A stretch of 64,000 nucleotides of DNA from Escherichia coli (lineage in GTDB: Bacteria > Pseudomonadota > Gammaproteobacteria > Enterobacterales > Enterobacteriaceae), in the NCBI RefSeq assembly GCF_024700885.2, contig NZ_CP117016.1. One strand, written 5' to 3'. The notes under the pieces were generated by a model. It saw only the letters and a list, made by a program, of their open reading frames with translations. It made no database searches and was not told where the DNA came from. The position numbers and the translations under genes were made by a program. The stretch's first letter is position 1. Each line of letters opens with the position of its first letter. This document shows, piece after piece, positions 18,175-41,464 of this stretch.

Positions 18175-18284
18175 GTTTATTCTCTTTCTGAATATAAAAA
18201 TGAACCCTCAACGCTTCCCTCAATGTTTCGGGAGCCATGCGGGTTCAATCATACACGGGAAGCGAGGCGCTTCCCATCACGTTA

Positions 18285-19403
18285 TTATTTTTCAACCTGC
18301 TGAACGTCAATTCGACGCGCTTCGTCCAGCTGACTGGCTTTCGCACGAATGCGCGCTTCCAGCTGGTCGATCATATCGTTGTTGTCCAGACGGTCTTTGC
18401 GCACGCCATCTTCATAGAGGCCGCTTTTCTTGTTACCGCCGGTGACGCCGAGTGTAGAAACCAGCGCCTCACCTGGGCCATTCACCACACAGCCGATAAT
18501 CGAAACGTCCATCGGAGTGATGATATCTTCCAGGCGTTGCTCCAGCGCGTTAACCGTACCGATAACATCAAACTCCTGACGCGAACAGGTTGGACAGGCG
18601 ATGAAGTTGATCCCGCGCGAACGGATACGCAGCGATTTCAAAATATCGAAACCGACTTTGATCTCTTCGACCGGATCAGCCGCCAGCGATACGCGCAGCG
18701 TGTCGCCGATGCCTTCAGACAGCAGCAGACCTAAACCAATGGAGGATTTAACCGCCCCGCTGCGCGCACCACCCGCTTCGGTGATCCCCAGATGCAGCGG
18801 CTGATCGATCTGTTTTGCCAGCAAACGATAAGACTCAACAGCGAGGAATACGTCTGACGCTTTCACGCTGACTTTGAACTGATCGAAGTTCAGGCGATCG
18901 AGATGATCAACATGACGCATGGCGGATTCCAGCAACGCCTGCGGCGTCGGTTCGCCATACTTTTCTTGCAGATCTTTTTCCAGCGATCCGGCGTTAACGC
19001 CAATACGGATCGGAATGTTTTTATCGCGCGCACAGTCAACCACCATGCGAATACGCTCTTCATTACCGATATTGCCAGGGTTAATACGCAGACAATCGAC
19101 GCCGTATTCCGCTACTTTCAGCGCAATGCGATAGTCGAAATGGATGTCAGCCACCAGCGGCACGTTAACCTGCTGTTTGATGAGTTTGAACGCTTCTGCC
19201 GCGTCCATCGTCGGTACTGAGACACGAACGATATCAGCGCCAACGCGTTCCAGCGCCTTGATTTGATTGACCGTTGCTTCGACATCTGTCGTGCGCGTAT
19301 TGGTCATGGACTGTACGGCGATGGGAGCACCATCGCCAATCGGCACATTCCCAACGTAAATACGTGTTGATTTTCTACGTTGAATTGGAGCCTGGTTATG
19401 CAT
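18285..19403 (-). CDS. ispG: 4-hydroxy-3-methylbut-2-enyl diphosphate synthase
   Basis: 372 aa. Confidence 0.96.
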
Positions 19404-30985: not shown

Positions 30986-31690
30986 CACAGAAAACCCCCA
31001 GCTAGGCTGGGGGTTCCGGAAAGCTTTCAGCTTTGAGCCAGTTATTAAAACCCCTTTTGATTTGTTAAAACACCTTGCGGTCTGGCAACTGCAAGTGTCA
31101 AACAAGAAATCAAAAGGGGGTCCCAATGGGGGACGAAAAGAGCTTAGCGTACACCCGCTGGAACTGTAAATATCACATAGTTTTTGCGCCGAAATACCGA
31201 AGACTGGCGTTTTACGGAGAGAAGCGTAGGGCGATAGGCAGTATTTTGAGAAAGCTGTGTGAGTGGAAAAGCGTACGGATTCTGGAAGCAGAGTGCTGCG
31301 CAGATCATATCCATATGCTTGTGGAAATCCCACCCAAAATGAGCGTATCCGGCGTTATGGGATATCTGAAAGGGAAAAGCAGTCTGATGCTTTACGAGCA
31401 GTTTGGGGATTTGAAATTCAAATACAGAAACAGGGAGTTCTGGTGCCGAGGGTACTATGTCGATACGGTGGGTAAGAACACGGCGAAGATACAGGACTAC
31501 ATAAAGCACCAGCTTGAAGAGGATAAAATGGGGGAGCAGTTATCGATTCCATATCCGGGCAGCCCGTTTACGGGCCGTAAGTAACGAAGTTGAATGCAAA
31601 TGTCAGATCGTATGCGCCTGTTAGGGCGCGGCTGGTAACAGAGCCTTACAGGCGCATTTGAAAAACCTCCGGCTATGCCGGAGGATATTT
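30986..31690 (+). mobile_element. IS200-like insertion sequence (IS200/IS605 family); ends approximate
   Basis: Y1 transposase gene plus upstream hairpins: CCCCCAGCTAGGCTGGGGG (left-end terminator-like) and CCCCTTTTGATTT...AAATCAAAAGGGG pairing that would sequester the tnpA SD. Confidence 0.6.
31126..31584 (+). CDS. tnpA: IS200 transposase TnpA (HUH/Y1)
   Basis: 152 aa from MGDEKSLAYTRWNCKYHIVFAPKYRR; HUH motif (HIHML) and catalytic Tyr region (GYYVDTVG). Confidence 0.9.
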   Translation: MGDEKSLAYTRWNCKYHIVFAPKYRRLAFYGEKRRAIGSILRKLCEWKSVRILEAECCADHIHMLVEIPPKMSVSGVMGYLKGKSSLMLYEQFGDLKFKYRNREFWCRGYYVDTVGKNTAKIQDYIKHQLEEDKMGEQLSIPYPGSPFTGRK

Positions 31691-31692
31691 AT

Positions 31693-31960
31693 TTGCTGGT
31701 CTGGTTCGCGGCCTTTCCAGCAGGTTGTATTACTGCAAGTGTATCTCGTCTACTCAATACTCGCTTTATGCATCAACGATGTCAAGTAGATAAAAAAGGA
31801 TAGATTTTGAATTCATTTGGCTTATCAGTCCGAATTCAGACAAATATAAACAAATCCCGCTTAATATTAAAATATACTAACTGGTAAAAGATATTACTTA
31901 AACGTGTAATTTCACTTTCTTTAAACAACAAAAAACCGCCAAAATCAGGCGGTTTTTTGT
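31693..31960 (+). ncRNA. Candidate sRNA-like element, copy 1 (RyfA-family position between sseA and sseB)
   Basis: Starts with conserved block TTGCTGGTCTGGTTCGCGGCCTTTCCAGCAGGTT shared with copy 2; ends at intrinsic terminator 31931-31960; no convincing ORF. Confidence 0.3.
31931..31960 (+). terminator. Intrinsic terminator
   Basis: AAAAACCGCC-aaaatca-GGCGGTTTTTTG. Confidence 0.55.
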
Positions 31961-32408
31961 TGCTGGTTTGGTTCGCGGCCTTTCCAGCAGGTTCACTTGT
32001 GTTGCATGAACAACGCAGGTGCCTCACAGCAAAAGAATACTCGCTGTTAAGAAATTTTGTGTCAAGTAAAAAACGAGTAATTATTTTTCGGTTAGCGTAT
32101 TATCGACACCGGCCCTTTCCGCCGTCTCGCAAACGGGCGCTGGCTTTAGGAAAGGATGTTCCTTGGCCGTAAATGCAAGTGTATCTCGTCGCTTGCTATC
32201 GCGGCAATATCGCCAGTGGTGATGTCGTGATGCGGTCTTCGCATGGACCGCACAATGAAGATACGGTGCTTTTGTATCGTACTTATTGTTTCTGGTGCGC
32301 TGTTAACCGAGGTAAATAATAACCGGAGTCTCTCCGGCAACAATTTATTGGTGGTTAACAACCTTCAGAACAGCAGGTAAACCCGAATGCCGCCCTTTGG
32401 GGCGGCAT
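31961..32408 (+). ncRNA. Candidate sRNA-like element, copy 2
   Basis: Repeat of the conserved 5' block plus shared AATACTCGCT and TGCAAGTGTATCTCGTC segments; ends at hairpin 32387-32408. Confidence 0.25.
32387..32408. terminator. Hairpin between copy-2 element and sseB 3' end (possible bidirectional terminator)
   Basis: ATGCCGCCC-tttg-GGGCGGCAT with T-rich flank. Confidence 0.45.
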
Positions 32409-32411
32409 ATT

Positions 32412-33188
32412 TTAGATTATCCGGTTCTGTTTAAAGTCACGCAAAAAACCACCCCAGCGACGTTCATAGAATGGCACAATATGTTCGGTAATAAAGTGGC
32501 TAATTCCTTTTTCCCCTTTTTTCACCTGACAAATATCGATGGGTTCATCGCCAGGTAATGTATCGGTCGCTACACTTCCCGCCGCCTGAATAATTTCTTC
32601 GATATCACCATCGGCTTCAATGCCAATAAGTAAATTAGGCTGTGCCTCTTCGTTCTCTTTAATTGAACAAATAAAAGCACGCTTCACCGGCTTAATAGTT
32701 TTAAATAAGGTGGTGAGTGAATCAATCATTTGTGCTGGTGGCTCTGCGACTTCCGATAATATCAGCGATTCACCGCCCTCCAGTACTTCCTGGCTGCTCA
32801 GCGGATTTCCTTCTTCACCAATCAACAAACTGATTTCACGCGGCATAAATTCTTTACCGGTTGGCAGTTTGGCATTAAGGAAGAGCGTTTCGCCAAGGGT
32901 CATCTCAAACAATGTGCGAACGGGCATTACGACAAATGCCTGTTCGTCTTCAACCGCCTGTTGAAGTGCTTCTAACGAGGTGAAAAAAGGAATGACGCTG
33001 GTGCCGTCTTCTTTTTCCCAGTGCTGTAAATCAAGCGCGCTATCTTCAACCACAGCCTCGCCCTGCGCCGCCGTACCAGGCACCCAGACGATGGATTCCA
33101 GTAGAGTACGGAAAAAGGCCGGGCGGTGCGCCGGTTCGGTTGCTGCTTTTTCCAGCAGGTCTTCAAGTTCATTTTTTGTTTCGGACAT
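32412..33188 (-). CDS. sseB: Protein SseB
   Basis: Start set to MSETKNELEDLL (track ORF 3 codons longer). Confidence 0.9.
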   Translation of the reverse strand: MSETKNELEDLLEKAATEPAHRPAFFRTLLESIVWVPGTAAQGEAVVEDSALDLQHWEKEDGTSVIPFFTSLEALQQAVEDEQAFVVMPVRTLFEMTLGETLFLNAKLPTGKEFMPREISLLIGEEGNPLSSQEVLEGGESLILSEVAEPPAQMIDSLTTLFKTIKPVKRAFICSIKENEEAQPNLLIGIEADGDIEEIIQAAGSVATDTLPGDEPIDICQVKKGEKGISHFITEHIVPFYERRWGGFLRDFKQNRII

Positions 33189-34614: not shown

Positions 34615-34858
34615 TTTAGTTATCCTTCTTTGTAAAAGGGCCGCCAGTTGGCAGCCCCAGGATTTTTCCGCTAAATGATTCGCGTTGCAGGACAAAACGC
34701 ATTGCGTTTTGAACAGCGCTTGCGCTGGCCCCGGAGGGGTGAGGCCAAAAGGCCGAATCACGCGGCAAGTGAGTGAAGCCCCAGGAGCATAGATAACTAT
34801 GTGACTGGGGTGAACGAGCGCAGCCAACGCATCTGCGGCGTGAAGCATGACGCGGAAA

Positions 34859-39854: not shown

Positions 39855-39965
39855 TGCTCTATAAACTCCGTACATCACTCAATGCAAGGAACCAGGCTAC
39901 CGGCTGGATGTACGACCGTGTTTACGGAGTGTTAAACACTCCGGCCTGATTCTGAATACTTTTTA

Positions 39966-40454
39966 TTAAGCGCGTAACTTAACGTCGATCGCGTCTTGTG
40001 TGCGGGTGCGTGGCGCGTCGTGAGTATGCTGACGACCAGACACATCCAGCACTTCCTGGTTATTAACCAGTTCGCCTAAAGTAATGTTGTTGAGAAAACC
40101 GGTGAGACGGTCGCTCAAATCACGCCACAGCGCGTGGGTCAGGCATTTATCGCCGCCCTGGCAGCCGCCTTTACCCTGACAACGGGTGGCATCTACAGAT
40201 TCGTCAACGGCGCTAATCACTTCGCCAACGGCGATGCTGCTGGCATCTTTGCCTAACAGATAACCACCGCCTGGTCCACGTACGCTGGAAACCAGACCAT
40301 TTTTACGCAGACGGGAAAACAGTTGTTCCAGATAAGAAAGGGAAATTCCCTGACGTTCGGAAATATCAGCCAACGGTACCGGGCCCGCTTCAGAGTTGAG
40401 CGCAACGTCAAGCATTGCGGTCACGGCATAGCGCCCTTTAGATGTCAGTCTCAT
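39966..40454 (-). CDS. iscR: Fe-S cluster regulator IscR (Rrf2 family)
   Basis: 162 aa. Confidence 0.95.
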
Positions 40455-40563
40455 GTCTTACTTCACCTCAAACTCGCCCCTGCCCGGGGTTTTTTATTGT
40501 AAAAGTGGGGGTATTGCATAGCAGGGTCAAGTCTGACATTCCCGAGTAAATTGGTCAACTATT

Positions 40564-40587
40564 TACTTGACTGATTTAGTCGGGTAT
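40564..40587. promoter_or_regulatory. IscR type-1 binding site-like sequence in iscR promoter
   Basis: Reverse complement ATACCCGACTAAATCAGTCAAGTA fits the remembered type-1 consensus ATASYYGACTRwwwYAGTCRRSTAT. Confidence 0.45.
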
Positions 40588-40630
40588 TTAACCTTCAGTG
40601 CCATTTTTTTATCGTGGCGTTTGTACCTGT

Positions 40631-40716
40631 TGTCGGATGCGGTGTGAACACCTTATCCGACCTACGGTTCTGTACATTGTAGGCCTGATAAGACGCATTA
40701 AGCGTCGCATCAGGCA
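40631..40716. repeat. REP palindromic repeats
   Basis: GTCGGATGCGGTGTGAACACCTTATCCGACCTAC... and TGTAGGCCTGATAAGACGC...GCGTCGCATCAGGC. Confidence 0.5.
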
Positions 40717-40723
40717 ACCACTG

Positions 40724-41464
40724 TTATTCGGCCTTATTACCTTTATTCTGCTGCTCTATAGAAGCCAGAATCCCGCGCAGGATATTCAATTCCTGGCTTT
40801 CCGGGCGCGCACGGGTAAACAGACGGCGCAATTTATTCATCACCTGCCCCGGATGGTTTTCACGAATAAAACCGGTTGCCAGCAGCGTTTGTTCCAGATG
40901 ACCATAAAAACGCTCCAGATCATCGACCAGCGGATACGGCGTCTCTTCATGCTCGACTTGTTCGCCATTTTCCTGAGTTGCCAGCCAGGCCATGCGCACT
41001 TCATAGGCAATAACCTGAACCGCCATCGCCAGGTTCAGCGAACTGTATTCCGGGTTCGCAGCAATCGCGACATGATAATGGCATTTCTGCAACTCTTCAT
41101 TGGTCAAGCCAACACGCTCACGACCAAAAACCAGCGCCACCGGGGTATTTGCCGCTTCAGCGACGCTTTTCAGACCGCATTCGCGCGGGTCGAGCATCGG
41201 CCACGGCAGCGTGCGGGAGCGTGCGCTGGTGCCCACCACCAGGCTACAACCGGCTAACGCTTCGTCGAGCGTATCGACGATGTGAGCATTACCAATCACA
41301 TCGCTGGCCCCTGCTGCCAGGGCAATCGCCTGGGAGTCAGGTTTCACCAGTGGATTAACCAGCCACAGATTGGTTAATCCCATTGTTTTCATGGCACGGG
41401 CAACAGAACCCATATTGCCGGTGTGTGACGTCTCCACCAGCACAATTCGAATATTTTGCAGCAT
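40724..41464 (-). CDS. trmJ: tRNA (cytidine/uridine-2'-O)-methyltransferase TrmJ
   Basis: 246 aa SpoU-class MTase. Confidence 0.93.

Follow-up and report, generated by a model that had tools for sequence, protein, structure and literature searches.

Our data leave little doubt that the 24-mer ATACCCGACTAAATCAGTCAAGTA, which lies exactly at 40587..40564 on the minus strand (as read from the minus strand of 40000-41200), represents the promoter-distal member of an abutting pair of 25-bp type-1 IscR operators, and this pair would repress iscRSUA-hscBA-fdx by negative feedback. All positions refer to the 64-kb stretch of Escherichia coli DNA analysed here, hereafter the window. The match to the consensus, its rarity, its location, the identity to K-12, the conservation and the phasing were all observed directly in the present analysis. 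The distal operator is referred to as site A and its proximal partner as site B (Table 1).

Table 1. Features of the iscR promoter region and further RNA family matches in the window; positions count from the first base of the window.
Feature	Position	Strand	Basis or remark
IscR type-1 site A (distal), ATACCCGACTAAATCAGTCAAGTAA	40563..40587	-	24/25 to consensus; -133..-109 from iscR ATG
IscR type-1 site B (proximal), ATAGTTGACCAATTTACTCGGGAAT	40538..40562	-	22/25 to consensus; covers -35 hexamer and spacer
Putative -35 hexamer TTGACC of PiscR, inside site B	40553..40558	-	Read from sequence; TTGAC invariant in Enterobacterales alignment
Putative -10 hexamer CAGACT	40530..40535	-	17 bp after -35
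Putative transcription start G	40522	-	From -10 position and published numbering of sites A and B; 68-nt leader
iscR 5' leader with CCCC-GGGCA-GGGG hairpin (40476-40490)	40455..40521	-	Sequence; FnrS/OxyS target according to PMC11572966
iscR CDS, 162 aa, first gene of iscRSUA-hscBA-fdx-iscX	39966..40454	-	ORF list and RefSeq annotation
sroE	18194-18285	-	sRNA family match, Rfam gathering level
STnc490	30993-31116	+	sRNA family match, Rfam gathering level
IS128	31794-31972	+	sRNA family match, Rfam gathering level
ryfA	32109-32413	+	sRNA family match, Rfam gathering level
AaHKsRNA22	34685-34757	+	sRNA family match, Rfam, weak

The initial annotation had read the reverse complement of 40564-40587 as a type-1 IscR-like site, consistent with autoregulation of the isc operon. 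Compared with the published 25-bp consensus ATASYYGACTRWWWYAGTCRRSTAT (as quoted in PMC6599224 and PMC3899308), this fit is confirmed at 24 of 25 positions, in either orientation of the consensus, once base 40563 is included. The interval proposed earlier is thus real, but the full site measures 25 bp and not 24; base 40563 was missing from it, and the A at this position, where the consensus has T, is the sole mismatch. On the minus strand the 24-mer is embedded in ...ggttaaATACCCGACTAAATCAGTCAAGTAaatagttgacc..., and over a longer stretch the context reads ...GGTTAAATACCCGACTAAATCAGTCAAGTAAATAGTTGACCAATTTACTCGGGAATGTCAGACTTGACC... Site A combines what characterises a type-1 operator, i.e. the match to the consensus, AT-rich ends and GACT/AGTC half-sites, and 16 of its 25 positions are self-complementary.

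The motif scan which had been proposed as a check was run with the published consensus over the whole 64-kb window, on both strands and with up to three mismatches allowed. Exactly two 25-mers were recovered, one at 40563-40587 (1 mismatch) and one at 40538-40562 (3 mismatches), and these abut with a gap of zero; 100 dinucleotide-preserving shuffles gave an expectation of 0.01 matches per window. Counted over all 25-mers of the window, 1 and 3 mismatches are each represented by a single sequence, no sequence falls in the range of 4-6, and nine have 7. Given a degenerate consensus, a functionless look-alike arising by chance has to be weighed. With 0.01 matches expected, the next-best 25-mers at 7 mismatches, a second site directly abutting, invariance in 98.8% of E. 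coli genomes and a position that is conserved across the Enterobacterales and more widely, the probability of such a coincidence is vanishingly small. A third consensus-like site was not seen close to the pair, where the best other 25-mer has 10 mismatches. According to the literature, the regulatory region of E. coli iscR contains sites A and B together with a site C that is minor and not conserved (PMC6599224; PMC3899308), and the absence of a visible site C agrees with this description.

The locus corresponds to E. coli trmJ followed by iscR-iscS-iscU-iscA-hscB-hscA-fdx-iscX, all co-directional according to the RefSeq annotation of a record that is 100% identical. From the position of the iscR ORF and the annotated gene context, site A is placed in the trmJ-iscR intergenic region, 109-133 bp 5' of the iscR start codon (40454). 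The location upstream of iscR, as claimed in the initial annotation, is therefore correct: the ORF lies on the same strand (39966..40454), and RefSeq-annotated E. coli records match the region at 100% identity. The type-1 sites overlap or adjoin core promoter elements, since site A abuts site B and site B contains the putative -35 hexamer TTGACC.

A simple sigma-70 promoter scan of 40350-40800 called no promoter, which we attribute to a -10 hexamer (CAGACT) too weak for the threshold; orthologues among 15 Enterobacterales carry CAGAAT or CACAAT at this position, both of which are better hexamers. Because no promoter was called by the scan, we infer the transcription start. Counted from a start at 40522, site A would span -65..-41 and site B -40..-16, with the -35 element at -36..-31 and the -10 element at -13..-8. 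These values would coincide with the numbering reported by Giel et al. (-65 to -41 for site A); the numbering of site A used here accordingly depends on the putative start. Indirect support for the placement is provided by the mapping of the iscRB oligonucleotide and by the footprint layout of PAO1, both described below.

Identification of the distal operator as site A follows from its neighbor. The published iscRB type-1 binding oligonucleotide (PMC12594620) is a 30-mer, AAATAGTTGACCATTTTACTCGGGAATGTC, which maps to window positions 40565..40536 on the minus strand with 29 of 30 bases identical. The published site B starts where the flagged sequence ends, which makes the latter site A. In the initial annotation site B is absent, although it is the standard type-1 probe of the literature; the assignment as a type-1 operator is supported, but the site is the distal half of a tandem pair whose partner, overlapping the -35 element, had gone unmentioned. 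The single discrepancy concerns the oligonucleotide, which reads ...GACCATTTTAC..., as compared with ...GACCAATTTAC... in the window, in MG1655 and in 5357 E. coli genomes, and it is either a typographical error or a deliberate variant. CCATTTT occurs naturally in some Enterobacter species.

Within E. coli the arrangement is practically fixed. By megablast, the stretch 40380-40800 was recovered from 5425 of 5426 complete E. coli genomes, and a 71-bp block comprising both sites and the -10 region (40525-40595) shows 100% identity in 5357 out of 5424 complete genomes (98.8%). By comparison, a 98-bp non-coding segment at 40625-40722, taken as an internal control, is at least 99% identical in only 50 genomes and detectable in 2061 of 5426. 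REP-type palindromes (inverted repeats I1-I3) occupy 40625-40724, between trmJ and the iscR promoter, and are highly polymorphic. The comparison with the E. coli iscR promoter that had been suggested as a further check turned out unambiguous: the 71-bp block is identical to MG1655 (NC_000913.3, 2662202-2662272), with site A at 2662240-2662264 and site B at 2662215-2662239. Over 2001 ungapped positions the window differs from MG1655 at 106 (REP DNA and coding sequence), none of them between 40218 and 40643; the cluster of differences from 40643 on is explained by the REP stretch. The type-1 site A of the K-12 PiscR was reportedly described by Giel et al. in 2006 and 2013. Sequence, gene context and adjacency to the published iscRB site are all the same in K-12 and in the window, and no difference from the K-12 site A was detectable in this non-K-12 E. 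coli strain.

Conservation beyond the species was assessed by scanning species-representative genomes for sequences coding for the IscR N-terminus (degenerate pattern KGRYAVTAM, which is independent of the operator). At least 120 loci matched, 110 of which had at least 250 bp 5' of the start codon and, together with the E. coli window, gave 111 upstream regions. Among the matches listed, a type-1 site with five or fewer mismatches is found in 96 of these 111 gammaproteobacterial iscR upstream regions; a shuffled 25-mer reaches this score with a probability of about 1e-5. A second site of the same quality lies exactly 25 bp away in 33 of the 96 (among the matches listed), and other offsets are empty or nearly so, with none at 20-24, 28, 29, 31 and 35 bp and 2, 1 and 1 at 26, 27 and 30 bp, again among the matches listed. 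At 15 of the 111 IscR-like genes, among the matches listed, no type-1 site better than 6 mismatches occurs within 250 bp upstream; possible reasons are that another gene comes before iscR in these cases or that the motif has diverged. The site-less loci include two from Halomonas, one from an uncultured member of the Pseudomonadales and one further locus (L065). Several genomes gave two loci, e.g. Thiobaca, which suggests paralogues.

Other layouts were also encountered. The iscR regions of Pseudoalteromonas and Colwellia hold two or three good type-1 sites off the usual abutting -90/-65 layout: in Pseudoalteromonas (three loci) the sites lie at about -60, -136/-147 and -175/-186, and in Colwellia (two loci) they are found far upstream, near -230 and -175. 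For the Alteromonadales, an operator layout of a different kind is thus suggested.

An alignment of 15 Enterobacterales upstream regions, built without reference to the motif, is unalignable 5' of site A and conserved from its opening AATA (the A preceding site A plus the first three bases of site A) through site B to the -10 region. The stretch ATGTCAGACTT is conserved in this alignment and ATAGTTGAC in site B is invariant. Close relatives, namely E. albertii, Citrobacter, Enterobacter and Superficieibacter, keep ATACCYGACTAAWWYAGTCAASTAA. In Yersinia, Photorhabdus and Arsenophonus the sequence retained is ATAsTTGAGTrAwTTACTAGGTTAA, with a joint change of the two half-sites from GACT/AGTC to GAGT/ACTA.

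This pattern bears on a scenario in which the -65..-41 block is kept mainly as an UP-element-like contact for alpha-CTD, or because a different regulator binds there, with IscR acting via site B only. The block is placed where UP elements lie, directly 5' of the -35 element, it is moderately A/T-rich, and in P. aeruginosa site A adds little to repression (PMC6599224). What is conserved, however, is the type-1 dyad (ATA..GAcT...AGTc..TAA, or the GAGT/ACTA variants on both half-sites) and not A-tracts; the phasing with site B is exactly 25 bp in 33 loci, among the matches listed; and the literature calls the E. coli site A an independent IscR site (PMC6599224; PMC3899308; bioRxiv 10.1101/2025.10.16.682990). 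We consider the scenario very unlikely.

IscR recognises two motif classes, both present in the E. coli regulon, which raises the question of a type-2 site. Such a site is bound by apo- as well as holo-IscR and would for this reason act under high Fe-S demand, not in feedback repression. Type-2 sites (e.g. at the sufA and hyaA promoters) are recognised by the same protein and are of similar length (26 bp versus 25 bp), but the motif is a different one, and site A does not match it. The best match to the type-2 consensus AWARCCCYTSnGTTTGMnGKKKTKWA in 40475-40620 has 8 mismatches and lies at 40612..40587, 5' of the flagged sequence with which it shares only the first base; this is a background score, reached by 154 sites in the window. 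In site A, a type-2 skeleton motif fails at 6 of 9 specified positions. We rejected the type-2 assignment on account of this background-level score and give it practically no probability.

The type-1 operator pair has a close counterpart in the iscR promoter of P. aeruginosa PAO1, which likewise has two abutting 25-bp type-1 sites and holo-IscR-dependent repression; the footprinted layout is -67..-43 for site A and -42..-18 for site B, the latter overlapping the -35/-10 interval (PMC6599224). With 68% agreement with the consensus, site A of PAO1 matches poorly, ranks behind site B and is minor in repression (PMC6599224). By contrast, in E. coli it is site A that fits the consensus better (24/25, as against 22/25 for site B). 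One may speculate that the strict end-to-end phasing of 25 bp, which among the matches listed is seen in many gammaproteobacterial orders, reflects a defined higher-order repression complex of two IscR dimers (a dimer of dimers), with the geometry under selection and the E. coli site A being nucleating rather than accessory. For the E. coli sites, independent binding of IscR has been reported (PMC6599224; PMC3899308), and a dimer-of-dimers complex, if true, would go beyond this model; we regard it as a rather improbable extension.

A full-text literature search did not find the literal site sequences. Chowdhury 2021 (PMC8561392) makes no mention of PiscR, PMC9459809 does not give site positions, and PMC11572966 is silent on both the transcription start and the length of the leader. 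According to the latter study, the iscR 5'-UTR is a pairing target of both FnrS and OxyS, and the ribosome-binding site is partly hidden by a stem-loop predicted for the 5' part of the mRNA. When we folded the leader, no structure scored better than those of shuffled sequence (z = +1.5), and we propose none apart from the short GC hairpin. The iscR leader is about 40 nt longer in Escherichia, Citrobacter, Enterobacter and Klebsiella than in Yersinia, Photorhabdus and Arsenophonus, and the extra part in the former group includes the CCCC-GGGCA-GGGG hairpin. Owing to the longer leader, the sites are found at -133/-108 relative to the ATG and not at about -92/-67.

Elsewhere in the transcript, the Rfam iscRS "iscR stability element" (RF01517) was detected at full length in the iscR-iscS spacer (39856-39965, minus strand, 131.7 bits). 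This element is linked to the RyhB-dependent differential decay of isc mRNA.

The regulatory mechanism is drawn from the literature and not from the present sequence analysis, which holds for holo-specific binding at PiscR as well as for repression. Binding at the type-1 sites of PiscR is stated to depend on [2Fe-2S]-IscR, and holo-IscR is reported to repress the isc operon via two tandem type-1 motifs (PMC12594620; bioRxiv 10.1101/2025.10.16.682990). According to this model, a [2Fe-2S]-IscR dimer would bind each imperfect palindrome; occupancy of site B would occlude the -35 hexamer and the spacer, and occupancy of site A would cover the DNA directly upstream, from about -65 to -41. The occupied pair would thereby exclude RNA polymerase from PiscR, and iscRSUA-hscBA-fdx would be repressed. 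A rising demand for Fe-S clusters, or oxidation or loss of the cluster, would weaken binding at the type-1 sites and derepress the operon. Since the Isc machinery that supplies IscR with its cluster is encoded by the very operon that IscR represses, the circuit would form a homeostatic negative feedback loop (PMC12594620). The autoregulatory role put forward in the initial annotation is supported, as a prediction from sequence, by the consensus fit, the adjacency to iscRB, the conservation and the literature on repression by holo-IscR.

Site A is a genuine and conserved element that the literature already describes, and its biology is known. It is in this sense an ordinary feature, just as the initial annotation had expected. 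What has been achieved is the recovery of a textbook autoregulatory operator from raw sequence, with its exact extent and its partner site now fixed. The feedback loop it belongs to is established biology and couples the supply of Fe-S clusters to the expression of the Isc machinery. The added value of our analysis is modest and lies in the cross-species tally, according to which the abutting 25-bp tandem arrangement, and not the motif alone, is widely conserved 5' of iscR.
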